From the NCBI GenBank assembly GCA_965228895.1, contig OZ245842.1:608001-672000 (forward strand): a DNA stretch of 64,000 nt. Reading direction: 5' to 3'. The position numbers and the translations under genes were made by a program. Below are positions 32,860 to 59,541 of the stretch, piece after piece; within the stretch, counting starts at the first letter, position 1, and each line of letters opens with the position of its first letter. The DNA is from Alphaproteobacteria bacterium (GTDB taxonomy: Bacteria > Pseudomonadota > Alphaproteobacteria > SP197). Below the pieces are notes generated by a model that saw only the letters and a list, made by a program, of their open reading frames with translations, did no database searches and was not told where the DNA came from.

Positions 32860-33122
32860 CAGCGTCTGTCGTCAGAGCACGCGGGAGGGAGCTTAGCCCG
32901 CCAAGGAGCGTTGTTAGGCTGCTGTACATGAAGGTGAAGGGCCGCATGCTGCGCACGTCCGTGTGGCCGCGTCCTTCGCCAGCCATAAAAAGTGGACGCG
33001 CATACAACTGAAACAATTATGCGCGGCTGCTGACACCGAACTGAAATTTCGGATCACAATCTTTCCTACCGTAGGACAACTTTTCGTGCGCTCGCCGCAC
33101 TTTCTTACGGATGGAGATTGCC

Positions 33123-33914: not shown

Positions 33915-33929
33915 TGTCGGGCAGCCGCG

Positions 33930-33961
33930 AAAAGGGCCGGTTTCTCACCGGCCCTTTTTTT
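33930..33961 (+). terminator. Rho-independent terminator
   Basis: AAAAGGGCCGGT-TTCTC-ACCGGCCCTTTTTTT. Confidence 0.9.
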
Positions 33962-33965
33962 GCGT

Positions 33966-34105
33966 CTAGAGCGGATCGTGCTTAGGTGGAACCGGTTGAC
34001 GGTTCCACCTAAGCACGTGAATCCGCCCTTTATCGATGAGTAGAGCAGATTCACCCGTCTTGATGGCATCGCAAAGCGATTCCATCAAAACGGGATCTGC
34101 TCTAG
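33966..34105. repeat. ~140 bp bipartite palindromic intergenic element, copy 2 (inverted relative to copy 1)
   Basis: CTAGAGCGGATC...GATCTGCTCTAG terminal inverted repeats; reverse complement aligns with 439-578. Confidence 0.9.
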
Positions 34106-34197
34106 GCCGTGGCAAATTGCCAAGTTGACAGTGCCGTTGACGACTTTGCCGTTGTAGAGTGAAGCCCCGAACCGGCTTCACAGAGATGATACGGCAG

Positions 34198-34980
34198 ATG
34201 GCAGGACACAACCTACTGCATGGCAAGCGCGCGCTCGTTACGGGAGCGGGAAGTGGCATCGGGCGGGCGATCGTGCACGCGTTCGCGCGTGAAGGCGCGC
34301 AGATTGCCGTCAGCGACGTCGACTTGGATCGTGCAAAGGCCGTCGCCGGCGAGATCGGTTCGGCGGGATCGCCGTTTCGCCTTGATGTCACCGATGCCGC
34401 GGAGACCAGGTCGGTCGTCGAGGCGGCTGTCGAGCAACTTGGCGGCCTGGATCTGGTGGCCGCGAATGCCGGGATTTCGACCATGAACGCTGTGGTCGAC
34501 CTGACCGAGGAGGAATGGGATGCCAACATGGCGGTCAACGCCAAGGGCGTCTTCCTGACCAACCGCGAAGCCGTGCGCCAATTCCTGGCGACGGGCACCA
34601 AGGGTGTCATCGTCAACACCGCGTCGCTTGCCGCCAAGATCGGGGCACCGTTCCTGGCCCACTACGCAGCCAGCAAGTTTGCCGTTGTCGGCTTTACCCA
34701 GTCGCTGGCCAAGGAGGTCGGCGAACATGGCATCCGCGTGAACGCTGTGTGTCCGGGCTACGTGCGGACATCCATGCAAGAGCGGGAACTCGCCTGGGAA
34801 GGCAAGCTGCGCGGGATGACGCCGGAGGCGGTCTATGACGAATACATCGCGACGACACCGCTGGGCCGCATCGAGGAACCGGAGGATGTCGCCGAGATCG
34901 TGGTCTTCCTGGCCAGCGACCTCTCGGGCTTCCTGACCGGTGAAGCGATCAACGCCAGCGGTGGCGTGTTGATGGATTAG
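34198..34980 (+). CDS. SDR, polyol/sugar-alcohol dehydrogenase-like
   Basis: TGAGSGIG, ANAG, YAASK, CPGYVRT. Confidence 0.9.
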   Translation: MAGHNLLHGKRALVTGAGSGIGRAIVHAFAREGAQIAVSDVDLDRAKAVAGEIGSAGSPFRLDVTDAAETRSVVEAAVEQLGGLDLVAANAGISTMNAVVDLTEEEWDANMAVNAKGVFLTNREAVRQFLATGTKGVIVNTASLAAKIGAPFLAHYAASKFAVVGFTQSLAKEVGEHGIRVNAVCPGYVRTSMQERELAWEGKLRGMTPEAVYDEYIATTPLGRIEEPEDVAEIVVFLASDLSGFLTGEAINASGGVLMD

Positions 34981-35002
34981 TTCTCTTCTTTGGGGGATAT
35001 CG

Positions 35003-35812
35003 ATGGGTTGGTTGAAGGATCTGTTGGGCAGCGATAAGCCGGTCATTGCGATGGCGCATCTGCCGCCGCTGCCGGGCTCACCGCTGTATGATGCCAAGGG
35101 CGGCATGAACGCGATCGTCGATTATGTCTCGCGTGATATCGAGGCGCTGCAGGCCGGCGGCGTCGATTGCATCATGTTCGGCAACGAGGGCGATCGTCCT
35201 TATCTTCTGAAGGCCACACCGGAGAGCCTGGCAGCAATGACCTCGGCGGTCGCGGCGGTGAAGAACCAGATAATGGTGCCGTTCGGCGTCAACTATCTGT
35301 GGGATCCCGTCGCCACGGTGGCCCTGGCGGTCGCGACCGGTGCCGTGTTCGCACGCGAGATCTTCACCGGTGTCTATGATTCCGACATGGGCCTGTGGGC
35401 GCCCGATGCGGCAAGCGCCCTGCGTTTACGTCACGACCTCGGGCGCGACGACCTTAAGCTGCTGTTCAACATCAATGCCGAGTTTGCTGCGCCGGTCGGC
35501 GACCGGCCGATCGAAGCGCGCGCCAAGAGTGCCGTTTTCTCGTCACTCGCCGATGCGGTTTTGGTGTCCGGCCCCATGACCGGCCAGCCGGTTGATCAGT
35601 CTAACCTGCAGCGGGTCAAGGAAGCCGTCGGCGACACACCGGTCTTCGCCAACACCGGCTGCAACATCGACAACATCGCCGACATCCTGTCGACAGCCGA
35701 CGGATGCGTGATCGGGACCCATTTCAAGGTCGATGGCGACACCTGGAATCCTGTCGATTCCGACCGGGTGCGGCGTTTCATGGAGGTCGTGGCGAAGGTC
35801 CGCAACCCGTGA
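35003..35812 (+). CDS. BtpA/SgcQ family TIM-barrel protein
   Basis: MAHLPPLPGSP, NEGDRPY, PFGVN, VSGPMTG, NTG, GTHFKVDG. Confidence 0.9.
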   Translation: MGWLKDLLGSDKPVIAMAHLPPLPGSPLYDAKGGMNAIVDYVSRDIEALQAGGVDCIMFGNEGDRPYLLKATPESLAAMTSAVAAVKNQIMVPFGVNYLWDPVATVALAVATGAVFAREIFTGVYDSDMGLWAPDAASALRLRHDLGRDDLKLLFNINAEFAAPVGDRPIEARAKSAVFSSLADAVLVSGPMTGQPVDQSNLQRVKEAVGDTPVFANTGCNIDNIADILSTADGCVIGTHFKVDGDTWNPVDSDRVRRFMEVVAKVRNP

Positions 35813-37332
35813 GCCTGTTGCTCGGGCTGGATATCGGGACGACATCGACCATCGGTATTTTCATCGACACCGATGGCGTCGTCGTCGCGACGGCATCGCG
35901 TCCGAGCGAGCTGATTTCCAAGCACGCCAATTGGGCTGAGGAAGATCCTGCGCTCTGGTGGTCGAACGTCTGCGCCATCGTGCCCGAGCTCCTGGCGGCA
36001 ACGGGCGCTAAAGCTGATCAGATTGCCGCCGTCGGCGTCACCGGCATGGTGCCGACCGTGATCTTGCTGGATGAGGAGAATGAGCCGCTGCGCTACTCGA
36101 TCCAGCAGAACGATGCGCGCGCGATTGACGAAATCGACGCAATGAAAACCGCGATCGATCCCGACGACTACTTTGCGCGGACCGGCGGCAGCATCAACCA
36201 ACAGCTTGTCGCGCCGAAGCTGCGCTGGTTGGAACATCACGAACCCGACCACATGGCTCGGGCAAAAACGGTGTTGGGTTCCTATGACTACATCACCGCG
36301 CGCCTGACCGGCTCCCTTTCGGTCGAGCAGAATTGGGCGCTGGAAGCGGGGTTCCTGGATCTTGGTGGCGGCCGTCTTGATGACAGGTTGATTAACCTTG
36401 GCGGCATCACGCCAGACCACCTGCCGCCACTGCGCGCCTCCCACGATGTCGTCGGTGAGGTGACGGGGGACGCCGCGGCGCAAACCGGCTTGGCCGCCGG
36501 GACGCCAGTTGTGGCCGGGTGCGCCGATCATATCGCGTCGGCGTTTGTTGCCGGCGCATCGCGGGACGGCGATCTCGTGGTTAAGTATGGGGGCGCCGGC
36601 GATATCATGCTGTCGACAAGCCGCGCGGTCACCGATCCCCGCATGTTTATCGACTACCACATCGTGCCCGGCCTTTTTTTCACCAACGGCTGTATGGCTG
36701 CCAGCGGCAGCGTGCTGAACTGGATCGCTGCCCATCTCGCCAAGGCCGAGGCGGACGAGGCGCGGGCGGCCGGCCAGTCCGTGCACGCTTATCTGGACGA
36801 CCAGGCGCAAGCGCTGCCGCCCGGCGCCGGTGGTATTGTTTTGCTGCCCTATTTCCTGGGCGAAAAGACGCCGCTGCACGACCCCCACGCGCGCGGCACC
36901 CTGGTCGGCCTCGGCCTGCACCACGGGTTGCCCAATATCTGGCGATCCGCGCTCGAATCCGTCGCCTTCGGTTTTCGTCACCATACCGAGGTGTTTGCCG
37001 AGATGGGGCAGGATGTCGGGCGGGTTCTCGCCTGCGATGGCGGCGCGGCGAGCGATCTGTGGGTGCAGATCACGGCCGATGTTTTGGATAAACCGATCGA
37101 GCGCCTGCTGTCACACCCCGGTTCCAGTCTGGGCGCGGCCTTTGTCGCGGGCATGGGTGTAGGCGCACTCGACGATTGGGCGGCAATCACCGCCTATGTC
37201 GAGCCGGACCGGACTTTCGAGCCCGACGCCCGCAACGTTGAGATCTATCGCGATGCCTACGGTCTCTATCGCGAGACCTACGAACGGCTCAAGACGCTCT
37301 ATCCGCAGATCGGTGGTTTGCCCGCAGGCTGA
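35809..37332 (+). CDS. FGGY-family carbohydrate kinase (xylulokinase-like)
   Basis: LGLDIGTTS, QNDAR, AGCAD, LPYFLGEKTP, DGGA.S.LW.QI.ADV; GTGA overlap. Confidence 0.92.
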   Translation: MSLLLGLDIGTTSTIGIFIDTDGVVVATASRPSELISKHANWAEEDPALWWSNVCAIVPELLAATGAKADQIAAVGVTGMVPTVILLDEENEPLRYSIQQNDARAIDEIDAMKTAIDPDDYFARTGGSINQQLVAPKLRWLEHHEPDHMARAKTVLGSYDYITARLTGSLSVEQNWALEAGFLDLGGGRLDDRLINLGGITPDHLPPLRASHDVVGEVTGDAAAQTGLAAGTPVVAGCADHIASAFVAGASRDGDLVVKYGGAGDIMLSTSRAVTDPRMFIDYHIVPGLFFTNGCMAASGSVLNWIAAHLAKAEADEARAAGQSVHAYLDDQAQALPPGAGGIVLLPYFLGEKTPLHDPHARGTLVGLGLHHGLPNIWRSALESVAFGFRHHTEVFAEMGQDVGRVLACDGGAASDLWVQITADVLDKPIERLLSHPGSSLGAAFVAGMGVGALDDWAAITAYVEPDRTFEPDARNVEIYRDAYGLYRETYERLKTLYPQIGGLPAG

Positions 37333-37337
37333 ACCGG

Positions 37338-38441
37338 TCAGTTGCCGGCAATCGCCTGACCGGTTTCGGCATCAAAGAAATGGGCGCGGTCGAGGTCGGC
37401 ATAGAGCTGAAGGTCGGAACCGGCGGATGCCGCGAAATCACGGCTTAGTCGCGCCGAAAGTTCCTGGCCGTTTGCCATGCTTGCGACGAGAACCACCTCT
37501 GGCCCCAAGGCTTCGACCGCGATCACATTGATCGCAATGGGGGCGTGGGCGGCGCTCGGCGGATCGACATAGAGATCCTCGGGACGAACGCCGAAGGTGA
37601 TCTTTGAACCCTTGTGGTTTGCCAAGGCCGCTTGCCGTTGCGACGGGATCGGTAGCTTGACGGGGCCAAGGTCCACCTCGTCGATGCCGTTGGGACCGCC
37701 AAGCTGGGCGTCGAGAAGGTTCATCGGCGGGCTTGCCAGGAAACCGGCGACAAAGGTGTCGACGGGGTTGCGGTAGACGTCGAGCGGCGGGCCGACCTGG
37801 ACGATTCTGCCGTCGCGCATGACGCAGATACGCTCACCCATCGTCATGGCTTCCACCTGGTCGTGGGTGACATGGACGACGGTGCGGCCGAGTTCTCGAT
37901 GGATCTTGATCAGTTCCGTGCGCATGGCCGCACGCAGCTTGGCGTCCAGGTTGGACAGCGGTTCGTCGAACAGGAAGGCCACGGGGTCGCGCACCAGGGC
38001 GCGGCCGAGCGCGACGCGCTGCTGCTGGCCGCCGCTCAGCTCCTTTGGGCGGCGCGCCAGCAGCTCCTCGATGCCCAACATGGTCGCGGTCTGCTTGATC
38101 CGCCGGTCGATTTCATCGCGCTCGACCTTGCGCAGCTTAAGGCCGAACGCCAGGTTACCGGAGACGGTCATATGCGGATAGAGCGCGTAGTTCTGGAACA
38201 CGACGGCAAGGTCCCGGTCGGCCGGATCGACGTTGTTGACGACCTTGCCGTCGATCGACATCTGGCCGGATGTGATCTCCTCAAGGCCCGCGATCATACG
38301 AAGCGTCGTCGACTTGCCGCAGCCCGACGGACCCAGAAGCACCATGAACTCGCCGTCCATGATCTCCAGGTCGATGTTGTCGACCGCCACGACATCCTGG
38401 CCGTAGATCTTGGTTATGCCCTCTAGAGTAATCTGCGCCAC
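37338..38441 (-). CDS. Carbohydrate ABC transporter ATP-binding protein (MalK/UgpC-like)
   Basis: GPSGCGKST, VFQNYALYPHM, LSGGQQQR, DEPLSNLDAKLR. Confidence 0.95.
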   Translation of the reverse strand: MAQITLEGITKIYGQDVVAVDNIDLEIMDGEFMVLLGPSGCGKSTTLRMIAGLEEITSGQMSIDGKVVNNVDPADRDLAVVFQNYALYPHMTVSGNLAFGLKLRKVERDEIDRRIKQTATMLGIEELLARRPKELSGGQQQRVALGRALVRDPVAFLFDEPLSNLDAKLRAAMRTELIKIHRELGRTVVHVTHDQVEAMTMGERICVMRDGRIVQVGPPLDVYRNPVDTFVAGFLASPPMNLLDAQLGGPNGIDEVDLGPVKLPIPSQRQAALANHKGSKITFGVRPEDLYVDPPSAAHAPIAINVIAVEALGPEVVLVASMANGQELSARLSRDFAASAGSDLQLYADLDRAHFFDAETGQAIAGN

Positions 38442-38453
38442 GGTGGCGAACTC

Positions 38454-39344
38454 CTATTTCAACGAACGCATGTAGCGGTAGAGGTAGGTGGTCAACACCA
38501 GGACAATGACCAGCAGCCCGACCGACATGGCCGACGCGCGTCCGATATCCAGGCCGAAGAACGCGGCGCGGTAGATGAAGTAGCTGATCAGGTCGGTTGC
38601 CGTACCCGGTCCGCCTTTCGTCATGATGAAGATGATGTCGAACGTCTTGATCGCGAAGATCAGGCGCAAGAGCAGGGCGACCATGATCACCGGCCGCATC
38701 AACGGCAGCGTGATGTGGATGAAACACCGTAGCGCGGACGCACCGTCCATCCGCGCGGCTTCATAGGGTTCGCGCGGCAGGGCAGCCAGCCCAGCCAGAA
38801 GCAGGATCGCCATGAACGATACCTGATGCCAGATGTCGACCATCACGACGGTCCAGAACGCATTCGTCGCGTTGCCCAGCCAGTTGACAGGACTGATGCC
38901 GGCAAGTCCGATCGCATAGTTGACGATGCCGAGCTCGGAATGCAGCAGCATGCGCCACAACAGGCCAACGACAACCGGGTTGACCAGAAGCGGCGCCAAC
39001 AAGATCAGGTAGTAGATCGTCTTGAAACGTTCGACCTTGTTAAGCGCCAGCGCGACCGAGAAACCGATGATGAACTCGATGACGACGGAGGCCAGCACGA
39101 ATTTGACCGTGACCCACATGGATCCCGGCAAGTACTCCTCGTCCGCCGCCTCTTCGTAGTTCTCCAAGCCGACAAAGTCCTCATGGACCGGCGTCAGCAG
39201 GGTGTAGTCGTAGAAACTGGTAAAGAGGGCAAAGATCAGCGGGAACATGATGACAAGCATCAACGCGGCAAGACCGGGCGCCGTGAGCCAATACCCAAAG
39301 CGCCGGTCCCGCCGCGCGAGCGTCAGCGTGTCAGCCGTTGCCAA
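38454..39344 (-). CDS. Carbohydrate ABC transporter permease (MalF-like)
   Basis: FVGLENY, YEAARMDGA, TKGGPG; several TM segments. Confidence 0.93.
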   Translation of the reverse strand: MATADTLTLARRDRRFGYWLTAPGLAALMLVIMFPLIFALFTSFYDYTLLTPVHEDFVGLENYEEAADEEYLPGSMWVTVKFVLASVVIEFIIGFSVALALNKVERFKTIYYLILLAPLLVNPVVVGLLWRMLLHSELGIVNYAIGLAGISPVNWLGNATNAFWTVVMVDIWHQVSFMAILLLAGLAALPREPYEAARMDGASALRCFIHITLPLMRPVIMVALLLRLIFAIKTFDIIFIMTKGGPGTATDLISYFIYRAAFFGLDIGRASAMSVGLLVIVLVLTTYLYRYMRSLK

Positions 39345-39368
39345 CGTTCTGAATCCGCTGTCTTACCG

Positions 39369-40649
39369 TTATTCCGAGATCTTGCCGTCTTTAACCAGCA
39401 AGGCTCGGAGTTCTTCTTGGGCGTCCGCCATGGCTTCGGGCACCGGTTTTTCGCCGGTCGCCGCCAGGTTCAACTCACGGCCGACTTCCTCGACGAACTC
39501 GGTCGTATAGGTGAAGACCGGGAAGTCCTGGGTGCCGGCAAGGATCTCACCCAAGATCGGATAATAGGGGCGCGCGGCCACCACATCCGGATCGGTGAAG
39601 ATCTGTGCCTGGGTCGGCGCGCCGCCCAGAAGCGCCCGCTCCTTGGCGATCTCCTGTGACTCCGCCCACTTGATGAACTCCCAAGCCGCGTCCTTGTTCG
39701 GGCTGGAATTGGGGATCGCCCAGCCCCAACCGCCATTCAGGCCACCGCCCGGATTGGGCGCGATGCCGACCTTGCCGGCGACCGTCGAGGCTTCCGGATC
39801 CTCGAATCCGGCATAGAGAATGTTGAACGTGACAAAACTATAGGCCTTGCCCTGGGCCATCACGTTGAACGCCTCGTCGAAACAATAGGCTTCCGAACCC
39901 GGAGGACTGTAGTTCTCCACGGCTTCGCGATAGTACTCCATCGCCCGGATCGCCTCGTCACTGTCGAGCAGCGGGTTCCAGTTCTCGTCGTGATAACGGC
40001 CACCCTGGGAATAGAGGTAGTTCGCCCACTGCATGGAGATGCAGTCGCCGCGCTGACCCTGGATGACAGTGCCGAAGAAGTCGCGTTCGCCGTCGCCGTT
40101 TTCGTCACGGGTGAAGAACTCGACCTGCTTCCAGTATTCGTCCCACGTCTCGGGAACCCTCAAGTCGATACCGTAGGCTTCCTTGAACGCCGCCTGTTCG
40201 GCGGGATCGTCGATCAGATCCTGACGATAGATGACGGCCATGGAGTAGTTATAGAACGGCAGCATATAGAGCGTGCCGTCGACGCGGCCGACCAGATCCA
40301 TCAGCTTGGGCACATAGACGTCGACATCGACGCCGTCGCGTGCGACCAGGTCGTCCAGCGGCATCAGCCAGCCGGCCTTGGTGAACTCGCCGACCCAATA
40401 GAAGTCAACGACGATCAGGTCGTAGCTGCCTTCCGGCGCGATGAGCTGGGGCACCAGCTTCGAATGCATGTCGATATAGCTGATCGCCTCGATCTCGACG
40501 TCGATGCCGGTTTCTTCCACGAACTGCGGCAACAGTTCCTGGATGTAACGGGTGTCCGGCACCGTTTCCATAAGGATACGGATGGTCTCCGCCTTGGCGA
40601 CACTGACGCTCAGCGCCAATGCCGCGATTACCGCTAGGACAAACTTCAT
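39369..40649 (-). CDS. Carbohydrate ABC transporter solute-binding protein (CUT1)
   Basis: Signal peptide, F..ETGI.V, PETWDE, GGWGWAIP..S.NKDAAWEFIKW. Confidence 0.93.
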   Translation of the reverse strand: MKFVLAVIAALALSVSVAKAETIRILMETVPDTRYIQELLPQFVEETGIDVEIEAISYIDMHSKLVPQLIAPEGSYDLIVVDFYWVGEFTKAGWLMPLDDLVARDGVDVDVYVPKLMDLVGRVDGTLYMLPFYNYSMAVIYRQDLIDDPAEQAAFKEAYGIDLRVPETWDEYWKQVEFFTRDENGDGERDFFGTVIQGQRGDCISMQWANYLYSQGGRYHDENWNPLLDSDEAIRAMEYYREAVENYSPPGSEAYCFDEAFNVMAQGKAYSFVTFNILYAGFEDPEASTVAGKVGIAPNPGGGLNGGWGWAIPNSSPNKDAAWEFIKWAESQEIAKERALLGGAPTQAQIFTDPDVVAARPYYPILGEILAGTQDFPVFTYTTEFVEEVGRELNLAATGEKPVPEAMADAQEELRALLVKDGKISE

Positions 40650-40734
40650 AACTCACGTCCTCCCTGTTTGAAGTTTTGCTCCACGTGTGCCCGGCCATGG
40701 ATCGTCCCGTCCCCGGCCAGGCGAACTCGTTAAG

Positions 40735-41553
40735 TCATTTCAGCGCCCCCAGTGAGAGTCCCTTGATGAGATAGCGCCGCATGAAGGGCAGCAGGATGAA
40801 GACTGGCAGGATGGCACAGATGGTCGCGGCCGAAAGCAAAGCGATATCGACGCCGCGATGGGTCTGGAATGATGACAGACCGACTGGCAGCGTGTTGGTT
40901 GACGGCCCACTGATGATCAACGCGAACAGGAACTCGTTCCAGCTCAAGATGAAGGACAACAGGCCGGCAGCCAGGATTCCGGGCGCCGCAACCGGCAAGG
41001 TGATGCGCAGGAAAGCCTGGAAGCGCGACGCGCCGTCGATCCTTGCGGCTTGTTCCAAAAGCGCGACATCGCCTTCGAAGAAGGCCACCAGAAGCCAGGC
41101 CAGGAACGGCAAGCTGATCGTCATGTGGGCGATGATCAGGCCGGGCAATGTGTTCAGGAGCGAAGCCTTCAAGAACAACGTGAACAACGGCAGCACCAGG
41201 ATCACCGGCGGCAGCATCTGACTCGACAAAACGAACAGGCGCAGAGGCAGGCCGCCGGTGTTGTAGCGCGCGAACGCATAGGCAATCGACGCCGCCATCG
41301 GCAGCGCGATGATCGTCGCGCCAAGCGCGACCGTGACGCTGTTCAGAAAGTAGTTGAAGAACGGGTAACCGGTGAAGATCTCGACAAAATTAGCAAGGCT
41401 GGCCTGGCCCCATTCCGGCGGTATCTTATAGGCCGTCAGCTTGTCGGTAAGCGCGACGCGAAGTAGCCATAGGAGCGGCAACAGGATGGTTGCGCTGAAG
41501 GCGATCAGAACACCATGCGGCAAAAGCCATGACAACACCCCCCGACCGCGCAT
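40735..41553 (-). CDS. Carbohydrate ABC transporter permease (MalG-like)
   Basis: LEQAARIDGA, SWNEFLFA, TLPV. Confidence 0.93.
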   Translation of the reverse strand: MRGRGVLSWLLPHGVLIAFSATILLPLLWLLRVALTDKLTAYKIPPEWGQASLANFVEIFTGYPFFNYFLNSVTVALGATIIALPMAASIAYAFARYNTGGLPLRLFVLSSQMLPPVILVLPLFTLFLKASLLNTLPGLIIAHMTISLPFLAWLLVAFFEGDVALLEQAARIDGASRFQAFLRITLPVAAPGILAAGLLSFILSWNEFLFALIISGPSTNTLPVGLSSFQTHRGVDIALLSAATICAILPVFILLPFMRRYLIKGLSLGALK

Positions 41554-41781
41554 TGCCTATCCCCAAGACAAAAACAGCGTTACCGATGACCGGTGATGGT
41601 CACCAAAAAGGGCATTCCCCACGTTCACCTATCACCCCGATCCACCCCGTCGCCCGGTTCATGACACGTGCATTCAGGCGCTGGGTGATTTGCTAAATGT
41701 CAACAGGTAAGATCTCTTGTCATCCTAGCGCAATGGCAGGGCAGCACAAGGCGATACGTCACTTCTGAGGATCCAAATACG

Positions 41782-44049
41782 ATGAATAAATCACCGTCGG
41801 CCAACCGATGGAAACGCTACGACGTGTGGGATGACCGTCCCTTGCGCCTCGACGGATTTGCACCCGATAGCCCCGAGGACGGGTTCCGTGCAACCGACAG
41901 CCCGACCGACCCGTCACCCTCACTGCGTATCGATGATGGCGCGGTCGTCGAGATGGATGGCGTGGAGGCCGACCGCTTCGATATGATCGACGCCTTCATT
42001 GCGCGCTATCACCTTGATCTCGAGGTGGCGGAGGAAGCGATGGCCGTCGAGAGCGCGGATTTCGCCCGCCGCCTGATCGACGTCAATGTACCGCGTGATG
42101 ACGTTATCCGGTTGGCGCGCGGCATGACGCCGGCGAAACTGTGCGAGGTCATGGCGTGCCTGAACACGCTGGAGCTTTCGTTTGCGCAGACCAAACTTCG
42201 CGCGCGCAAGGCGCCGGGCAATCAGGCGCACGTGACCAACGCGAAGGATGATCCCGTGCAGATGGTTGCCGATGCGGCGACGGCGGCGGCCATGGGATTT
42301 GATGAAGTCGAGACCACCATGCGGGTCGCGCGCAATTCATGGTCCAATGCGCTTGCCTGTTTGATCGGCGCGACGGTCGGCAAACCGGGAACCCTTGTGC
42401 AGTGCGCCTGCGAAGAAGCCGAAGAGCTTAAGCTTGGCATGGCAGGCCTCACCTCCTATGCCGAGACCATCTCGGTCTATGGCACCGAGGGGTCGTTCAT
42501 CGACGGCGATGATACGCCGTGGTCGAAGGCGTTTTTGATTGCGGCCTATGCGTCGCGCGGCATCAAGTCGCGGTGCACGTCCGGTGGCGGCTCCGAACTC
42601 CTGATGGGGTTCCACGATGCCAAGTCACTGCTGTACCTCGAAGCGCGATGTCTTTGCGTACAGCGCGGCATGGGTGTTCAGGGTACGCAAAACGGCGGCA
42701 TAGACGGCGCGCCGGTAACGTCGTCGATCGCCGGCGGCATGCGCGAAATCCTGGCTGAAAACGTTCTGGCCGCTTTGTTGGACCTGGAATGCGCGTCTGG
42801 CAACGACACGCGTATCAGCGAGTCGGAGATCCGCGTCGGCGCCAAGATCATGCCCCATCTCATGTCCGGCACCGACTTCCTTTGCTCCGGTTTCGGGTCG
42901 GTGCCGGCTTACGACAACTCGTTCGCTGCGTCGCTGTTCAACGCCGAGGAGATCGAGGATTTTCTGACACTGCAACGCGATTTCGAGTTGGACGGCGGTC
43001 TGCGGCACATGCCGGAAGATGATGTCATGACATTGCGCCGCCGCGCTATTGATGCGTTGAAAGCCGTCTATGGCGAGCTGGGCCTTGCCGAGCTGAGCGA
43101 GCAACAAAAGACAAGCGCGTGTTATGCCAGCGGCTCCCAAGACACCGTGGCGTTTCGTTTCACGGAAGTCGGCCGGATCTCCGAACAGATCCGCGACCGC
43201 GGTATCACCTTGATCGACGTCATCGGCGCGTTGGCGCGAAGCGGGTTTGAAGATGTCGCGGAAAACCTGCTGGCACTGTGGCGCCAGCGCGTCAGCGGCG
43301 ATTATCTGCAGACAGCGGCGATCGTACGGGATGGCGTGGTCGTCAGCGCCGTCAACGATCCCAACGACTATGCCGGACCGCAGACGGGCTATCGCCTTTC
43401 ACCGGACCGCCACCAAGAGATCGCCCGGGTACGCGGCATCATGACCAAGGATCAGATCGTCGAGCTGGAGGAGCGCCATGCGACAGCGGAACGGCGGCGC
43501 TACCACATGGAGCCGGTCGGTCCGGCCGCAAAGGGCAATGGCGTTAACGAGGTTGTCATCGGGCTCAGCCCTGCCTTCGGAGAACGCCTGCACCGCACGA
43601 CATCGGGACTCTATCTGTCGCAAGTGCTGGCGGCCTTGGTCGACGGTATCAAGGAAGGTGGCGGGACAGCCCATGTGGTCCGCATACGCCACACCGCCGA
43701 CACATCGTTCCTGGGCCTGACGGCGGCTAGACTTTCCAACTCCGGAATCGGTATCGGCATTCAGGCGAAGGGAACGGCCGTCATTCACACCGCGCAGGAT
43801 GAACCGCATATGAACCTTGAGCTTTTTTCCCAGGCGCCGATTACGACTCTCGACCATTATCATGGCATGGGCCGCAATGCTGCCGCCTATGCGCAGGGTC
43901 TCGATCCCGAGCCGATCAGTATTCCCTATCGCGGCGAGGCATTGGGCGCGCGCTATCATGTTCAGACGTCGCTGATCTATGCCATCGAAACGGCGATGTT
44001 GGACCCCGACGCCGAACCGCAAACGTTGGAGGTGACGTTTCATGGCTGA
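41782..44049 (+). CDS. pduC: Adenosylcobalamin-dependent diol/glycerol dehydratase family, fused large (alpha) and medium (beta) subunits
   Basis: Alpha motifs NQAHVTN, GFDE.ETT, YAETISVYGT, DGDDTPWSK, QRD..DGGL, GDYLQT, SAVND.NDY.GP.TGYR, then beta motifs EVVIGLSPAF, SGIGIGIQ.KGT.VIH, NLELFSQAP, GRNAA.YA in one 755-aa frame. Confidence 0.93.
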   Translation: MNKSPSANRWKRYDVWDDRPLRLDGFAPDSPEDGFRATDSPTDPSPSLRIDDGAVVEMDGVEADRFDMIDAFIARYHLDLEVAEEAMAVESADFARRLIDVNVPRDDVIRLARGMTPAKLCEVMACLNTLELSFAQTKLRARKAPGNQAHVTNAKDDPVQMVADAATAAAMGFDEVETTMRVARNSWSNALACLIGATVGKPGTLVQCACEEAEELKLGMAGLTSYAETISVYGTEGSFIDGDDTPWSKAFLIAAYASRGIKSRCTSGGGSELLMGFHDAKSLLYLEARCLCVQRGMGVQGTQNGGIDGAPVTSSIAGGMREILAENVLAALLDLECASGNDTRISESEIRVGAKIMPHLMSGTDFLCSGFGSVPAYDNSFAASLFNAEEIEDFLTLQRDFELDGGLRHMPEDDVMTLRRRAIDALKAVYGELGLAELSEQQKTSACYASGSQDTVAFRFTEVGRISEQIRDRGITLIDVIGALARSGFEDVAENLLALWRQRVSGDYLQTAAIVRDGVVVSAVNDPNDYAGPQTGYRLSPDRHQEIARVRGIMTKDQIVELEERHATAERRRYHMEPVGPAAKGNGVNEVVIGLSPAFGERLHRTTSGLYLSQVLAALVDGIKEGGGTAHVVRIRHTADTSFLGLTAARLSNSGIGIGIQAKGTAVIHTAQDEPHMNLELFSQAPITTLDHYHGMGRNAAAYAQGLDPEPISIPYRGEALGARYHVQTSLIYAIETAMLDPDAEPQTLEVTFHG

Positions 44050-44473
44050 CAAACGCGATCAGGTCGAAGCGCTCTATCCGGCCAGCGAAAAACAGCAGGA
44101 TCGATTGACCACACCCGGCGGCCACACACTCAGCGATCTGACACTGCCGAACGTGTTGGCGGGAGGGCTTGGGACCGGTGATCTCGGTATCTCACCGGAT
44201 GCCTTGCGCCTGCAACGCGATGTCGCCGAGGCGACCGGCCGGTCTTGTTTGGCAGAGAACTTCGAGCGCGGTGCGGAACTGACCGGTGTCTCTCAGGACG
44301 AGATCTTCGCGACCTACAATCTGTTGCGTCCGGGACGCGCCGAAAGCAAACAGGAGCTTCTCGACCTCGCGCGGCGCTATCGTGACGAACACAACGCGCC
44401 CGAGATCGCCGGTCTGATCGAAGACGCCGCGGAAACGTACGAGAGACGTGGGCTGTTTCGTACCCGCTACTAG
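44042..44473 (+). CDS. pduE: Diol/glycerol dehydratase small (gamma) subunit
   Basis: YP.SEK, TP.G..L.DLTL, ENFERGAEL, YNLLRPGR, A..YE.RG; overlaps upstream stop. Confidence 0.9.
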   Translation: MADKRDQVEALYPASEKQQDRLTTPGGHTLSDLTLPNVLAGGLGTGDLGISPDALRLQRDVAEATGRSCLAENFERGAELTGVSQDEIFATYNLLRPGRAESKQELLDLARRYRDEHNAPEIAGLIEDAAETYERRGLFRTRY

Positions 44474-44534
44474 TTAGCGAGGGCGCCGACGACGCCTATC
44501 AATTGCCCAACATCAACGTCTGGGGAGGAAACCG

Positions 44535-44936
44535 TTGGTTACGCATGAGAGTTTCACCAAGTGGCTCGACGCCTATGGCAGTGCCTGGGTTAACCAGAAC
44601 CCGGACGGCACCCTGGCTCTCTTCACCGATGACGCCACCTATATGTACACGCCGTTCCACAAGATCATGAAAGGCAAGGACGAGATTCGCCGCTACGTCG
44701 AGAAGGGCGCCGTTGGTCTACAGGAGGATATCGAATTCGACTACGAGGTCCTGGCCGTCACGGACGCGTACGGTATTAACCGATGGAAAGCGGCCTTGAC
44801 GTGGAAGGAGACCGGCGAGCGCCTCCACTTTGACGGCATCTATCAGGTCTTCTTGAACGACGACAACCTATGCCATCGCTTCGACGAGTGGTGGCATGCA
44901 AATCCACCGCTACCCGAAGACAACGCACCGGAATAG
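44535..44936 (+). CDS. SnoaL-like/NTF2 family protein
   Basis: WLDAYGSAW....LFTDDATY...PF...G..EI, DG......DD..C.RF.EWW; GGAGG RBS before TTG. Confidence 0.82.
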   Translation: MVTHESFTKWLDAYGSAWVNQNPDGTLALFTDDATYMYTPFHKIMKGKDEIRRYVEKGAVGLQEDIEFDYEVLAVTDAYGINRWKAALTWKETGERLHFDGIYQVFLNDDNLCHRFDEWWHANPPLPEDNAPE

Positions 44937-44971
44937 GGACTTTCGGCTGGTGATGCCGCGTTACAATGCAC

Positions 44972-46504
44972 TCAAGCGATCGCGCCGACGACGCGTACGC
45001 GGGCGCGCAGGCTGTTGCCCGGCATATAGGCAAGCGGCAGGTCCTCAACCTCGACCAACTCCAGGCTTTCGGCATCCGCGCCCGCCTCGACCGCACGTCT
45101 TTCGGCGATACCACGCGCCTCGGCGATAGCGTCTTCGCGCGACAGACCTTGAAAGATCTGGTCGCACTCACCGGAGATCTGGGCAATCGCAGCGCCGACC
45201 GCATTGGCGACCTCGCCGTGTTCGACATGGATGACGTCGCTGACGCCGGCAATCTGATCAGGCACCAGAAAGGCGCCGCCGCCGACGGCAATGACCGGCA
45301 CGTCGCCGGCTTCGGTCTTCATGCGGTCAATTGCGACCGCGGTCATCTCGCGCATGGCCGCTATTGTTTCCTCGACCATCGCCTTGGGCAGGTCATCGAC
45401 CTTGTCGCGATCACCCAGGTCAATCAGGCCCTGGGCAACGGCGATGTCGGTTGCCGTCAGGTCGGGCCCGCCAAAGACGAGCCCGCGCTCGGTCAGCCGG
45501 TAGCCCGTACTCTCGGGGCCGATGGTGAGGGGATCTCTACCAATGAGCGTGCCGCCGCCGAGCGCGATGGAAAGTAGATCCGGCATCCGGAACAAGGTTC
45601 TGACACCGCCAATCTCGACGACGTTGTTGGCTTCGCGCGGAAAACCCGATTTCAGCATGCCGATATCGGTCGTTGTGCCGCCGACATCGACGACCATGGC
45701 GTCGGAAAGCCGGGACAGGAATGCCGCGCCGCGCATACTGTTGGTCGGGCCTGAAGCGAAACTGAACACCGGATACTTTTCGGCGACGTCGGCCAGCATC
45801 ACCGTGCCGTCGTTCTGGGTCAGGTAAAGCTGCGCTGTGATACCGCTGGTTTCGATCGCTTTGGTGAAGGCGGCTGTCGTCTTCTTGGCGAGGTCCTGCA
45901 GGCTGGCGTTCAGCAACGTGGCGTTCTCGCGTTCCAAGAGCCCGATGCGACCGAGCGCGCTGGAGCGGGTAACCGCGACGTCCGGACATTCCTCGGCAAG
46001 GATCGCGGCGGCCTGGTCCTCCAACTCGCTCGTCAGCGGTGAAAAAACAGAGGTGACGCCGACAGCCGTATAGCCGGCATCGCCAATGCGCTTTGCCGCC
46101 TCGCGCATGCCGGCTTCGTCAAACGGGGCAATGGGACGGCCGTCATACTCGTGGCCGCCCTGCAGCATGACGATCTCGCCCCGGACCTCCTCAGCGAGAT
46201 CGTCCGGCCAATCGATGAACGGCTCCAATGATGCGCTGGCCGGCAGGCAGATGCGAATGGCCGCGACCTTCGCGACGTCGCGCCGCTGGGCAACGGCGTT
46301 GGTGAAATGCGTGGTGCCGATCATGACGGCATCCAGGCCGGTCGGGTCGGCCGATGTCTGGGCCAAGACCTGCTTCAGGGCCTTGGTAATGCCCGACATC
46401 ACGTCTTCGGTCGTCGGCGTCTTGACCGAGCCGACGATGACATCGTCCTCGACCAGGACCGCGTCCGTGTTGGTGCCGCCGACGTCGATGCCGATGCGTT
46501 TCAT
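44972..46504 (-). CDS. Short stand-alone hydantoinase/oxoprolinase A-type (ATP-binding) protein, DUF917-associated
   Basis: GIDVGGTNTD, GTTHFTNA, ERENA, SGPTNSMRGA, DVGGTTTD, ANAVGAA; 510 aa; no B subunit adjacent. Confidence 0.9.
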   Translation of the reverse strand: MKRIGIDVGGTNTDAVLVEDDVIVGSVKTPTTEDVMSGITKALKQVLAQTSADPTGLDAVMIGTTHFTNAVAQRRDVAKVAAIRICLPASASLEPFIDWPDDLAEEVRGEIVMLQGGHEYDGRPIAPFDEAGMREAAKRIGDAGYTAVGVTSVFSPLTSELEDQAAAILAEECPDVAVTRSSALGRIGLLERENATLLNASLQDLAKKTTAAFTKAIETSGITAQLYLTQNDGTVMLADVAEKYPVFSFASGPTNSMRGAAFLSRLSDAMVVDVGGTTTDIGMLKSGFPREANNVVEIGGVRTLFRMPDLLSIALGGGTLIGRDPLTIGPESTGYRLTERGLVFGGPDLTATDIAVAQGLIDLGDRDKVDDLPKAMVEETIAAMREMTAVAIDRMKTEAGDVPVIAVGGGAFLVPDQIAGVSDVIHVEHGEVANAVGAAIAQISGECDQIFQGLSREDAIAEARGIAERRAVEAGADAESLELVEVEDLPLAYMPGNSLRARVRVVGAIA

Positions 46505-47607
46505 GCTGCGTCCTTCCCATTCGTCAGGGGGTGAGGGGAGTGATAGTCCATGTCATAGCCGAACGCCCGTGGCCCGACCACTTTGAGGGCGTGGGGCGTG
46601 GTCAGGACCGGTGCGGCGGGCAGTGAGACGATGACGACACGCTGGCCGTAGCGGATCGATTCCGTGCCGATCGCTTCGCCGTTGACCGCATCCAGAATGC
46701 AAATCAGATCGGGCACCATGACGCGGATCTCATTGTCGATGCTGCCGATCGTGAACTCGTTTTGAAAGTCGACGTCGAAGGTCTGACCGGCATAGCCGTC
46801 ACTTCCCGCGATGCGTGCCTTGCCCCGCACGAAGCCGTCCGTCGTGCGCCGGGCGACATCGACCACCTTGCCGCTGAACAAACGTAGACCGGCTTCGGCA
46901 TCAAGTACCGCATCACTGGGGTCCAGGTGACGACGCCGGGCCTCGGTGACCGCGCGGCCCAGGCGTATGGCGCGGCTGATGGAGCCGATGACGGCGTGGT
47001 CGCGAATCTGACGGCCGGTGCGCGGCGGTTTGCAGGTCGCGATCATCGCGCCGGTTTCCGTACAAAGCTTTCGGCCGATCCGCTCGGTCCATCGCGCGCT
47101 CGCGGTCTTCAGCAGCAGGACCTCGTTGTCACGGATGTCGGCCATGGCGATCGGATAAAGCGGCAGGTCGGCAATGACGAAGCTGGACATCTGCATTTCC
47201 GGGAAGGCGCGCCCGCGCGGGTCGGCGTCAAGCAGAGGAATATCCAACAGGGCCGCAACGACCAGAGGCAGAATGCCGTTTTCACCACCGATCTCCGACG
47301 ACATGACGGCGCGGAACGGCCGGCCCGTCAGATCCTGCATCATCTCGATAGGCCGGCAGATCTGCGCGGGATCGGGCAGTCGTTCCTTGGTGACCAGCGG
47401 CGCACCCATGAAACCGACCTCGGCGACCAGATCGTCGTTATCGAGGTCACATGGCTCGATCATTCCGACCCGCTTGCCCTCGCCGTAGAGTTTCTGAATG
47501 TTCAGCAGCTCGAGATAAGGATGGGTCCCACCACCGGTCCCCAAAATGCCCGTGCCGATCGCCAGAGCGGGCAGGTCATCGGCTTCGATGGGACGACGGC
47601 CCGTCAT
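46501..47607 (-). CDS. DUF917 family protein (paralogue 3 of tandem)
   Basis: LGTGGG, MGAP, EIGGEN, GRAFPE.QM, FQNE, VPDLIC, RYG, GPRAFG. Confidence 0.88.
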   Translation of the reverse strand: MTGRRPIEADDLPALAIGTGILGTGGGTHPYLELLNIQKLYGEGKRVGMIEPCDLDNDDLVAEVGFMGAPLVTKERLPDPAQICRPIEMMQDLTGRPFRAVMSSEIGGENGILPLVVAALLDIPLLDADPRGRAFPEMQMSSFVIADLPLYPIAMADIRDNEVLLLKTASARWTERIGRKLCTETGAMIATCKPPRTGRQIRDHAVIGSISRAIRLGRAVTEARRRHLDPSDAVLDAEAGLRLFSGKVVDVARRTTDGFVRGKARIAGSDGYAGQTFDVDFQNEFTIGSIDNEIRVMVPDLICILDAVNGEAIGTESIRYGQRVVIVSLPAAPVLTTPHALKVVGPRAFGYDMDYHSPHPLTNGKDAA

Positions 47608-48698
47608 GGGTCTGTTCCGAACAGCGACACGTAGTCGATGTCGTATCCGAAGGCGCGCGGGCCAACGAAGCTGAGACCGGCGTCGGAGGTCAGGATATCG
47701 GCGGCGGCAATCGCAACGATGCCAACGCGCAAACCATACCGAATGGTCTCGGTCCCGATCGCTTCGCCGGTATCGGCATCGAGGATGCAGATGAGGTCGG
47801 GCACCATCACCTTCAGCGCGCTATCGATCCAGGCGATGGTGAACTCGTTCTGAAAATCAACGTCGAAGATCTGACCTTCAAAATCATCCTGACCTTCAAT
47901 CCGGGCGCGCCCGCGCACGAAACCTGCCGTGGTTTGCCGCGCGACATCGACGACCTTGCCGCGGAACAGCAACAGGCCGTCTTCGGACTCCATGACCGCG
48001 GCGATGGGATCCGTGTGGGCCTTGCGTGCGCGGCGCACGGCACCGCCCAGCCGAATGGCGCGGCTGACGGTGCCGTGAACCGCATGGTCCTTGATCTCGC
48101 GCCCGGTTCGCGGCGGCCGGCACGTTGCGGCGATCGCACCCATCTCGGTGCAGAGGCGCCGGTTGATGCGCTCGACCCAGAGCGGCCCGCCGGCCTTCAT
48201 CATCAGGACCTCATTGTCGCGGATATCGGCCATGGCGAAGGGATAGAGCGGCAGGCCGCGAATCACGAAGCTCGACATCTGCATTTCGGGGAAGGCCCTG
48301 CCCATGCAATCGGCATCGACCACCGGGAGGTTCAGGAGAGCGGCGACCAGGAATGGCAAGACGCCGTTCTCCGCGCCGACTTCGCCCGCCATGACCGCAC
48401 TGAAGGTGGCGCCGGTCGCCTGGCGCATCATCTCGACCGGCCTGAGCGTGTGATGGGGATCGGGAAGGCGTTCCTTGGTGACCAGCGGCGCACCCATGAA
48501 GCCGAGTTCGGCAACGTGGTCATTGTCGTTGAGGTCATCGGGCGCAATCAGCGAAACACTGCGACCGGCGCGATAAAGCTTCTCGATGTTCAGCAGCTCG
48601 AAATAAGGATGGGTACCGCCGCCGGTTCCCAGAATGCCCGTCCCGATAGCGAGACTTCGCAAGTCATCGAAGGCCACAGGCGTGGTTGTCGCCATCAT
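47604..48698 (-). CDS. DUF917 family protein (paralogue 2 of tandem)
   Basis: Same motifs (EVGAEN variant); start overlaps upstream stop (TGATG). Confidence 0.88.
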   Translation of the reverse strand: MMATTTPVAFDDLRSLAIGTGILGTGGGTHPYFELLNIEKLYRAGRSVSLIAPDDLNDNDHVAELGFMGAPLVTKERLPDPHHTLRPVEMMRQATGATFSAVMAGEVGAENGVLPFLVAALLNLPVVDADCMGRAFPEMQMSSFVIRGLPLYPFAMADIRDNEVLMMKAGGPLWVERINRRLCTEMGAIAATCRPPRTGREIKDHAVHGTVSRAIRLGGAVRRARKAHTDPIAAVMESEDGLLLFRGKVVDVARQTTAGFVRGRARIEGQDDFEGQIFDVDFQNEFTIAWIDSALKVMVPDLICILDADTGEAIGTETIRYGLRVGIVAIAAADILTSDAGLSFVGPRAFGYDIDYVSLFGTDP

Positions 48699-53990: not shown

Positions 53991-54006
53991 GGTTTCCTCC
54001 GACCGA

Positions 54007-56424: not shown

Positions 56425-56575
56425 AGTCCGGGCACCTTGCCCCGGTGATGCTCAAATGTCTAACCGAGGTATCCGACCCCGACTCGACACTCACGCAAGC
56501 GGCTGGACTCGCCGGTCGGACCCGTGTTGAGGTGGTCGCACGCACCGGTAGAACGGTGACACGAGGGAGGGTGTG

Positions 56576-59365: not shown

Positions 59366-59541
59366 TTCTCGTGAACGTCCATGGTGTCGGCCGCAACGAG
59401 AGTCGCATCAACTGCCGGCTGGCGCTTCCGCCGGCTTGACTCGGGAACCAGACACGAAAGAGATTGGGCCATGGTGACTAGAACGAACCGATGGGACACA
59501 CGGCGCGACGGCGCCGCTGTGATCCCGAATTGTGTGCTGAG

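Follow-up and report, generated by a model that had tools for sequence, protein, structure and literature searches.

The B12 diol dehydratases, which depend on adenosylcobalamin (AdoCbl), are textbook radical enzymes, and they serve as industrial catalysts for making 1,3-propanediol, 3-hydroxypropionate, and butanediol. Homolysis of the cobalt-carbon bond leads to abstraction of a hydrogen from C1 of a Ca2+-bound diol, the hydroxyl on C2 undergoes a 1,2-shift, and the loss of water gives an aldehyde, R-CH2-CHO. Their use is limited by a narrow substrate range and by suicide inactivation, which makes an ATP-dependent reactivase necessary. Here we describe a member of this family from an alphaproteobacterium (assembly GCA_965228895.1). 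It is encoded in a stretch of 64,000 nucleotides, which we call the window (contig OZ245842.1, positions 608,001 to 672,000). Its catalytic residues are kept, several residues distal to them are replaced in the same way across a whole clade, and no reactivase was found in its genome.

Among the closest described systems are PddABC and DhaB123 of Klebsiella (structures 1DIO, 3AUJ, 1IWP, and 1MMF). The window's enzyme is 49-51% identical to them in the alpha subunit, and it shares their fold, their Ca2+ ligands, their catalytic His, Glu, and Asp, and their three-subunit composition. It differs in that alpha and beta are one polypeptide, in S301D and the other replacements described below, in having no reactivase in the genome, and in having no pdu or dha operon or shell genes in the window. 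In the diol dehydratase of K. oxytoca, glycerol bound in the pro-S mode directs its C3 hydroxyl toward Ser301, and the S301A, Q336A, and double mutants have altered Km, kcat, and rates of inactivation (PMC7674605; this and the other PMC papers are cited from excerpts). This agrees with a preliminary description of the window's DNA, which had placed S301 and Q336 near the C3 hydroxyl and tied them to suicide inactivation. Also, the Q336A, S301A/Q336A, and S301A/Q336A/V300M forms of diol dehydratase turn over 1,2,4-butanetriol, and the S302A/Q337A form of the K. pneumoniae glycerol dehydratase (KpGDH) acquired activity toward erythritol and other C4 and C5 polyols (PMC13180773). S301 and Q336 are the family's two best-documented specificity positions, and these are the positions that are replaced here.

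Natural fusions of alpha and beta have been described in Mesorhizobium, Hyphomicrobium, and Mycobacterium, with reactivation genes absent in the first two (PMC7674605, PMC4777399). Mesorhizobium loti (mll6722/6721), M. opportunistum, and Hyphomicrobium have a fused dhaB1-dhaB2, a separate dhaB3, and no reactivation factor, and the active site of the fused enzymes was termed "slightly different" (PMC4777399, citing Liu et al. 2010). So the fusion, the missing reactivase, and the "slightly different" active site are already in print. The Mesorhizobium and Hyphomicrobium enzymes resemble the window's in the fusion, in the separate small subunit, in coming from aerobic Alphaproteobacteria, and in lacking a reactivase. 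The excerpts of PMC4777399 and PMC7674605 keep glycerol as the substrate, and the genomic contexts that we describe below (a polyol module and amino-alcohol genes) are not reported in them. MSMEG_1547 of M. smegmatis is described as "potentially" a glycerol dehydratase (PMC9604228), and the role of the diol dehydratase in the RMM2 microcompartment of Mycobacterium and Rhodococcus was left open (Axen et al. 2014, PMC4207490).

The preliminary description concerned positions 42220-42940, which lie inside one open reading frame (ORF) of 755 codons. The two dehydratase genes are:

41782..44049, + strand: fused large (alpha, about residues 1-555) and medium (beta, about residues 556-755) subunit of the AdoCbl diol/glycerol-dehydratase family, clade B (Pfam, NCBIfam, alignment to KpGDH, AlphaFold2 fold)
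44042..44473, + strand: small (gamma) subunit (PF02287, 126 bits)

Within the 755-residue protein, Dehydratase_LU (PF02286) matches residues 9-555 with 746 bits and Dehydratase_MU (PF02288) matches residues 596-709 with 82 bits. Because these domains follow each other in one ORF and PF02287 has an ORF of its own, we read this as a natural alpha-beta fusion plus a gamma subunit, and the predicted assembly of the two gene products is (alpha-beta fusion)2 gamma2. The start codon (ATG) of gamma overlaps the stop codon of the fusion by 8 nt and is preceded by GGAGG. The fused KpGDH chain 9vig aligns with E = 2.6e-222 (phmmer). The NCBIfam model for the large subunit (NF011979, propanediol/glycerol family dehydratase) gives 821 bits, which exceeds the cut-off of 788. 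The medium-subunit model gives 170 bits, under its cut-off of 248, and the small-subunit models are all under theirs (at best, 143 versus 196); the matches to PF02288 and PF02287 both exceed the Pfam cut-offs. The low NCBIfam scores imply that this dehydratase is a divergent branch. An AlphaFold2 model built on 45 sequences has a mean predicted local distance difference test (pLDDT) score of 89.2. It superposes on the alpha chains of the K. oxytoca and K. pneumoniae enzymes (5ysh/1mmf/1dio) with TM scores of 0.97-0.98 and a root-mean-square deviation of 1.2 Å, and on the Klebsiella beta chains with TM scores of 0.93-0.96. Residues 305-307, in the pocket loop, have pLDDT below 50. The genome encodes PduO-type and CobA-type adenosyltransferases; no riboswitch, of the cobalamin type or otherwise, was found in 33000-46000 of the window.

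To compare residues, we used the phmmer alignment to 9vig, which has no gaps over query residues 111-517, so that query numbers are KpGDH numbers plus 6 (308 pairs with 302, and 343 with 337). As S302 and Q337 of KpGDH are equated with S301 and Q336 of K. oxytoca (PMC13180773), query numbers are K. oxytoca numbers plus 7. Each residue was verified codon by codon on the window's DNA. For conservation, a word-indexed protein search scored 8,000 candidates, of which 7,999 had E <= 1e-20. The best 120 homologues were mapped onto the query; they are 62-81% identical to it and about 750-785 amino acids long, except for one of 1269 amino acids. Counts out of 120 refer to these. The pocket features, each from the alignment and the codons, are:

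42223..42231, + strand: Q148-A-H150, kept Ca2+ ligand and catalytic His (K. oxytoca Q141/H143); Q and H each 120/120
42310..42342, + strand: E177 kept (E170), then the clade-specific M180, R181 (42322-4), N185, and W187 (ETTMRVARNSW); R181 120/120
42463..42468, + strand: E228-T229 kept (E221/T222)
42688..42708, + strand: Q303 kept (Q296), then the loop G306-I307-D308-G309 in place of S/A-V-S-C; D308 is 42703-5
42805..42816, + strand: D342 kept (D335), then T343-R344-I345 for Q336-T337-F338; T343-R344 is 42808-13
42886..42888, + strand: S369 kept (S362, Ca2+ ligand)
42919..42924, + strand: S380 (42919-21; M373 to S), then F381 kept (F374)

We take Q141, E170, E221, Q296, and S362 of the K. oxytoca enzyme to be ligands of Ca2+ or substrate and H143 and D335 to be catalytic; several of these figure in the mutant table of PMC7674605. 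The kept residues (Q148, H150, E177, E228, T229, Q303, D342, S369, and F381) are each found in 120/120 homologues. The altered residues are R181, N185, W187, G306, I307, D308, G309, T343, R344, I345, and S380. In K. oxytoca numbering, the changes include S301D, Q336T, T337R, M373S, Ala/Gly174R, and Y178N, and M180-R181...N185-S186-W187-S188 replaces the V-A...Y-A-P-F of the Klebsiella type. The preliminary description had these essentials right. The core that it listed as retained (the equivalents of Q141/H143, E170, E221, Q296, D335, S362, and F374) and the substitutions that it listed (S301D, Q336T, a new Arg, and M to S before F) hold up in the gap-free alignment and the codons. The strings that it cited (NQAH, QNGGIDG, NDTRI, ETTMRVARNSWS, and DNSF) are all present, bracketed by 42220-42940. 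The changes are not seen in the solved and verified Klebsiella enzymes, which have Ser and Gln where this protein has D308 and T343. Its description of the pocket as "larger" does not follow, as Asp is larger than Ser and Arg is larger than Thr, yet Thr or Ala is smaller than Gln. Its pairing of Asp with an amine or hydroxyl, and of Arg with a phosphate or carboxylate, would be one option among others, for D308 and the arginines might bond to each other instead.

Nor is this a feature of one gene, as had been implied. D308 and R181 are found in 120/120 homologues, and R344 and S380 in 117/120 each; 54 homologues have Thr at position 343, 65 have Ala, and one has Ser. Judging from these counts, the conserved pattern of substitution exceeds chance or drift. 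The positions of D308 and T343 have also been changed in the engineered enzymes (S301A/Q336A with or without V300M, and KpGDH S302A/Q337A; PMC13180773), and the engineered Q336A has a natural equivalent in the Ala343 of 65/120 homologues. The natural clade differs in having Asp rather than Ala at 301, plus two arginines and a serine. In the AlphaFold2 model, R181, R344, and S380 come just after barrel strands (at 175-179, at 336-338, and after 366-369, respectively), which is the catalytic face; they may line the pocket.

With a full set of residues for binding Ca2+ and the vicinal hydroxyls and for migration of the hydroxyl, the enzyme should turn a terminal vicinal diol, R-CHOH-CH2OH, into R-CH2-CHO. 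As far as the sequence can tell, then, it is an intact AdoCbl-dependent radical enzyme of the diol/glycerol dehydratase family. The native substrate would be something other than 1,2-propanediol or glycerol: a diol that carries, from C3 onward, a group that is polar, forms hydrogen bonds, or is charged. R would be larger than H or OH-methyl, and probably a polyol chain or a charged group. This sustains part of the preliminary claim of vicinal-diol chemistry on a new substrate, in that the Ca2+ ligands and catalytic residues are intact and the context is not that of pdu or dha; the new substrate itself is a proposal.

To see how widespread these replacements are, we searched 1.84 billion representatives (at 50% identity). 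There were 209 matches at E <= 1e-30, mostly fragments, and the representatives that cover the pocket sort into three types:

Type A (canonical): VG..RY.P / QNG[SA][IV]SC / D[QA].. / M or T before F
Type B (the window's): [MV]R..N.W / QNGGIDG / D[TA]R / S before F
Type C: VP..D.P / QNGGIDG / D[AT]L[MV] / M before F

The seven full-length canonical representatives have S at 308 (7/7), G at 181 (7/7), and Q or A at 343. A scan of metagenomes, seeded with 'QNGGIDGA' and 'DGDDTPWS', gave at least 566 confirmed matches to clades B and C together; these seeds cannot return type A, so the proportions of B and C say nothing about their abundance relative to it. From the genome and metagenome scans we assembled 104 loci, of which 65 are type B (including the window), 37 are type C, and 2 are too short to class.

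We built a tree with FastTree from 93 rows (92 distinct): 86 loci with at least 1950 nt matched (55 B and 31 C) plus the 7 type-A representatives. Because its supports are SH-like and it was rooted at the midpoint, the tree does not fix the direction of change. Type A splits from B and C together with a support of 99, clade C is sister to clade B, and clade B is monophyletic (support 100, branch length 0.43). The window sits in a subclade of seven rows (with L005, L001-3, L006, and L016; support 100). It belongs to clade B by its R181/D308/R344/S380, by its alpha-beta fusion, and by its place in the tree. It is not in clade C, as it has R181/R344/S380 instead of P181/L344/M380 and has no reactivase, shell, or GntR neighbours. 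Sixteen positions are fixed in clade B (93% or more of the 55 sequences) and fixed for another residue in type A (6/7 or more): 156, 160, 181, 185, 265, 278, 302, 308, 309, 347, 353, 356, 372, 387, 390, and 392. At six of these (156, 308, 309, 347, 372, and 387), B and C have the identical residue, and positions 181 and 185 separate clade B from both A and C. Clade C has D308 with neither arginine (Pro181, Leu344, and Met380). A protein from a metagenome-assembled genome of Hyphomicrobium (P0090) has the clade-B motifs, and we infer that the Mesorhizobium enzymes belong to clade B as well. In the literature we found no measured activity for any clade B or C enzyme; they are named glycerol dehydratases by homology. 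As a side observation, the clade-B dehydratases of Chloroflexota (L007-L015, L058, L059, and L062, from Anaerolineales and metagenome contigs) have Arg, not Trp, at 187, and they adjoin a gene for an enolase-superfamily protein (MR_MLE) or a class-III aminotransferase.

For the gene neighbourhoods, we clustered the 782 other ORFs within 8 kb of the dehydratase at the 102 classed loci and named representatives with Pfam. Many of the contigs are short, so these counts are lower bounds:

gamma subunit: clade B 36/65, clade C 15/37
ABC ATPase: clade B 31/65, clade C 1/37
short-chain dehydrogenase (SDR): clade B 22/65, clade C 19/37
isochorismatase-family hydrolase: clade B 19/65, clade C 0/37
PotD-like binding protein: clade B 13/65, clade C 0/37
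class-III aminotransferase: clade B 13/65, clade C 9/37
CUT1 binding protein: clade B 10/65, clade C 0/37
APH kinase: clade B 6/65, clade C 18/37
shell (BMC): clade B 3/65, clade C 12/37
DDR reactivase: clade B 0/65, clade C 17/37
GntR/UTRA regulator: clade B 0/65, clade C 20/37

The neighbours of clade C are those of the RMM2 microcompartment of Axen et al. 2014, and clade C is the actinobacterial RMM2 type. Its dehydratases are like the window's in being alpha-beta fusions, in having the QNGGIDG loop with S301D, and in forming the sister group of clade B in the tree. They differ in P181/L344/M380, without the arginines, and in the reactivase (17/37 loci), shell (12/37), and GntR (20/37) genes beside them.

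The lack of a reactivase extends beyond the neighbourhood. PF08841, which represents the DdrAB/PduGH/GdrAB reactivase, has no match in the window's genome (5.5 Mb and 98.7% complete) or in four other clade-B genomes (0/5 in all), and it was matched in the one clade-C genome that was used as a control (1/1). We considered a hydantoinase-A-like gene at 44972-46504, with weak matches to MutL/GlmL, as a substitute. We rejected it: it has no match in 17 related loci, and it can be assigned to the adjacent DUF917/hydantoin-type cluster instead.

An explanation for both the pocket and the missing reactivase is that this is an ordinary glycerol or 1,2-propanediol dehydratase whose pocket is built differently, for instance with a salt bridge between D308 and R344 in place of the S301-Q336 pair. 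Perhaps it resists inactivation, so that aerobes need no reactivase. We consider this a doubtful but serious possibility. The fused enzymes of Mesorhizobium, Hyphomicrobium, and Mycobacterium are labelled glycerol dehydratases in the literature (again from excerpts), and because mutants at S301 and Q336 shift the rates of inactivation (PMC7674605), a lineage without reactivase might be selected at just these sites. Some neighbourhoods would fit too. The loci of the window's sister sequences have a glycerol-kinase-like gene and a glycerate/hydroxypyruvate-reductase-like gene, two loci have a propionate-CoA-ligase-like gene, and clades B4 and C lie beside genes for an aminopropanol kinase and phospho-lyase, whose product would be propanal, as from propanediol. 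On the other hand, three invariant or nearly invariant new charges (D308 and R181, 120/120; R344, 117/120) would be unusual surroundings for propanediol's methyl group. Clade C keeps D308 without either arginine, which implies that D308 is not merely a salt-bridge partner. Furthermore, the window has no gene for 1,3-propanediol oxidoreductase, PduL/PduP, or shell proteins, and its kinase is xylulokinase-like rather than glycerol-kinase-like.

That kinase belongs to a group of genes just upstream of the dehydratase, which we call the SDR-ABC-BtpA-FGGY module (ABC, ATP-binding cassette). These genes, and a small gene 3' of gamma, are:

34159..34980, + strand: SDR, first gene of the module (Pfam adh_short)
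35003..35812, + strand: BtpA/SgcQ-family TIM-barrel protein, function not assigned by family (PF03437, 270 bits)
35809..37332, + strand: xylulokinase-like FGGY carbohydrate kinase (FGGY_N, FGGY_C), with a likely GTG start at 35809 (listed ORF from 35704)
37338..41553, - strand: CUT1-type ABC importer, with ATPase 37338-38441, permease 38454-39344, binding protein 39369-40649, and permease 40735-41553 (Pfam, ORFs)
44535..44936, + strand: SnoaL-like small protein, membership uncertain (PF12680, 39 bits)

The importer is transcribed divergently from the dehydratase, and the nearest solved relatives of its binding protein are 1eu8 (a trehalose/maltose binding protein), 5iai (a sugar ABC protein), and 4rya, which is labelled '(Sorbitol)'. 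The SDR's best solved relative is the NADH-dependent quinuclidinone reductase 3ak4 (326 bits); sorbitol dehydrogenases score about 146-155 bits. The kinase scores 300 bits against the XylB model, under the cut-off of 380, and 490 bits against 3ifr, an uncharacterised structural-genomics entry. For the BtpA-family protein, we found no solved relative by sequence and no functional lead in the literature. We tried the SnoaL-like gene as a conserved partner of the dehydratase and rejected it, as tblastn gave no match in 17 related loci; at its place, relatives carry an SDR or an isochorismatase-family gene. Among the ORFs scanned (21.7-63.7 kb of the window), there are no shell proteins, PduL/PduP/PduQ, DhaT, or reactivase.

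The module is found together with the dehydratase in other genomes. The window's synteny recurs at L005, whose dehydratase is 79% identical. Among 401 sampled genomes of the class, 7 have the dehydratase and 10 have an orthologue of the kinase (E <= 1e-120). Five have both: the window's own (G000), G340, G036, G213, and G342. One has the dehydratase alone (G084) and one has just a clade-C dehydratase (G399). Those with the kinase alone are G375 (of the same genus as G084, and 82% complete), G079, G247, G373, and G361. In G213, G036, and G342, there is a co-directional run of SDR, permease, binding protein, permease, ATPase, BtpA, and FGGY genes whose products are 55-71% identical to the window's. 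In G213 the run lies 18 kb away from the dehydratase; in G036 and G342 the two are on separate contigs. In the modules of these other genomes, orthologues of the SDR are 57-69% identical to the window's and those of the importer are 55-69% identical. BtpA orthologues (62-71% identity) adjoin the kinase in 6/6 genomes examined. Also, the homologue of 1269 amino acids (P0024) begins with an FGGY kinase that is 68% identical to the window's and continues with a dehydratase that is 66% identical; this could be either a genuine fusion or a gene call that merged two neighbours. We found no longer fusion partners among proteins of 1323-3775 amino acids, which is weak evidence. In G340, which is of the same family, a match at G340:C2:144904-145668 (L024/L030) covers dehydratase residues 4-258 and nothing more, and it is possibly a gene remnant; it lies about 5 kb from an intact group of SDR, BtpA, FGGY, and thiamine-pyrophosphate (TPP) enzyme genes.

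Such a remnant in a relative, and the patchy presence of the gene in the class (7/401), could mean that the window's dehydratase is itself decaying or is a non-catalytic relic. We think that this is very improbable: the frame of 755 codons is unbroken, its product can be aligned over its full length with relatives that are 81% identical, every catalytic residue is kept, and the gene for the small subunit is translationally coupled.

Our preferred explanation, which we hold tentatively and with slightly less than even confidence, is that the dehydratase acts on a non-canonical, polyol-type substrate and is linked to the SDR-ABC-BtpA-FGGY module. For this locus, the likeliest candidate would be a C4-C6 sugar alcohol, or a derivative of one that is phosphorylated or polar in some other way. 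The adjoining polyol-type importer would take it up, and the SDR, the xylulokinase-like kinase, and the BtpA barrel would share in its processing, with the dehydratase's product passed to the SDR and the kinase. One possible order of steps would be from the polyol to a 2-deoxy-aldose, then oxidation or reduction and phosphorylation, and then central metabolism.

Several observations weigh against a polyol-type substrate that is linked to the module. First, about three lineages account for the five co-occurring genomes (three of the five belong to one genus), so the co-occurrence is suggestive rather than statistical. Second, G079 and G247 have BtpA-FGGY and no dehydratase was found in them; they also lack that importer and the SDR. 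Third, the module by itself looks like a classical route from polyol to ketose to ketose phosphate, which would be self-sufficient. Fourth, the kinase that neighbours the dehydratase at the sister loci (L001-3, L006, and L016) is glycerol-kinase-like (494 bits, cut-off 590), which would fit glycerol, and the binding proteins at other clade-B loci are just ~30% identical to the window's. Fifth, D308 could simply pair with R344 or R181. Finally, the contexts of clade B are heterogeneous despite an invariant pocket. A sugar alcohol would explain this less well than an amine-linked substrate would, or than a common C3 intermediate, for example propanediol.

This heterogeneity follows position 343 to some extent. 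The loci with Thr343, which include the window, have sugar-type importers, SDRs, and FGGY kinases. At L036, L041, and L045, a LuxR gene in the reverse direction is followed by genes for a binding protein, two permeases, an ATPase, the dehydratase, gamma, and an SDR, all in the forward direction, and the importer is of the same family as the window's. At most of the loci with Ala343, a reversed aminotransferase gene is followed by the dehydratase, gamma, an isochorismatase-family protein, a PotD-like binding protein, an ATPase, permeases, and an SDR, with an APH kinase nearby. Three of the Ala343 loci have shell genes.

These contexts raise the question of whether the substrate is instead a C3-type diol that bears an amine or is zwitterionic or anionic, such as 3-amino-1,2-propanediol, a dihydroxypropyl amine or amide, or dihydroxypropanesulfonate. 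In that case, the ammonium would be bound by D308 and the acid by the arginines, and the enzyme would be part of amino-alcohol catabolism instead of the polyol module. The commonest gene order in clade B, with its class-III aminotransferase, isochorismatase-family protein, PotD-like binding protein, and APH kinase (and at some loci shell genes), points this way. So do the fact that clade C, which shares D308, is of the RMM2 amino-alcohol type and the SDR's similarity to an amino-ketone (quinuclidinone) reductase. The window has an aminotransferase and APH kinase pair of its own (59491-61790), and there is an amino-alcohol microcompartment locus elsewhere in the genome. However, this pair is 15 kb from the dehydratase, behind an unrelated hydantoinase/DUF917 cluster, and the microcompartment locus is ~3.5 Mb away, while the neighbours of the dehydratase are a sugar/polyol-type importer and a carbohydrate kinase. 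A literature search that combined dihydroxypropanesulfonate with diol dehydratase terms found nothing. We know of no amino-diol dehydratase activity in this family. Overall, we consider an amine-bearing or anionic substrate to be quite unlikely for the window's enzyme.

The microcompartment genes just mentioned (BMC-domain genes at 4.15 Mb of the genome) belong to a locus at G000:C1:4142000-4154000 (L115), which encodes a PotD-like binding protein, an SDR, an APH kinase, a class-III aminotransferase, an aldehyde dehydrogenase, and three shell proteins. It has homologues in metagenome loci L040 and L044, which carry a clade-B dehydratase after the shell genes; L115 itself has no dehydratase.

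To return to a polyol-type substrate, the idea can be extended to all of clade B. The clade would be a reactivase-independent, oxygen-tolerant branch whose Asp/Arg/Arg/Ser pocket evolved for sugar alcohols or charged diols (polyol phosphates, dihydroxypropanesulfonate, or amino-diols). Joined to the SDR-ABC-BtpA-FGGY module, the clade's enzymes would make up an aerobic route, not described so far, from polyols to 2-deoxy-aldoses or omega-substituted aldehydes. This larger proposal is speculative, and taken as a whole we think that it is somewhat unlikely. If it is true, then clade B is the natural counterpart of the S301A/Q336A enzymes that were built to convert butanetriol and erythritol.

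Whatever the substrate, this widespread natural clade differs at just those residues that have been the targets of engineering, and it does so without a reactivase. If the substrate is new, there is an added reaction in the aerobic catabolism of polyols, organosulfonates, or amino alcohols. If the substrate is glycerol, the clade shows the design of an enzyme that can do without reactivation. Either way, the present "propanediol/glycerol dehydratase" gene names rest on homology alone. Supplementary files aside, our literature searches turned up no account of the residue-level signature or its invariance, of the division into clade B, without a reactivase, and clade C, with one, both carrying S301D, of the resemblance to mutants engineered to accept polyols, of the joint occurrence of the dehydratase and the SDR-ABC-BtpA-FGGY module, or of the proposal of a substrate other than glycerol or propanediol.

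The rest of the window contains some other genes of interest. An unrelated-looking cluster lies 3' of the SnoaL-like gene (hydantoinase-A-like, three DUF917/S-Me-THD, and flavodoxin-like genes, a PotD-type ABC system, and racemases). The hydantoinase-A-like gene and the three tandem DUF917/S-Me-THD paralogues are at 44972-49780 (- strand), with a fourth copy 8 kb off at 57329-58453 (+ strand). Beside them are two Asp/Glu/hydantoin racemases (53253-54170, - strand, and 56573-57325, + strand), the PotD-type ABC system, and a LacI regulator. The DUF917 genes are far under the cut-offs for thiohydantoin desulfurase (105 versus 450 bits). Further along, a class-III aminotransferase (59491-60846, + strand) is followed by an APH-family kinase (~60849-61790, + strand). 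This pairing is typical of amino-alcohol kinase/phospho-lyase systems, and it is also found beside many clade-B and clade-C dehydratases.

On the other side of the module, a gene at 30007-32859 (+ strand) encodes a protein of 950 amino acids with an animal-haem-peroxidase domain (544 bits) and 11 stretches of RTX calcium-binding repeats. It is adjoined by HlyD-family and ABC exporter genes (26093-29130, - strand), which are likely a type I secretion pair. Finally, the gene at 33111-33914 (+ strand) encodes a bacterial protein with two stretches of the LCCL domain (142 bits), which is better known in animal proteins.

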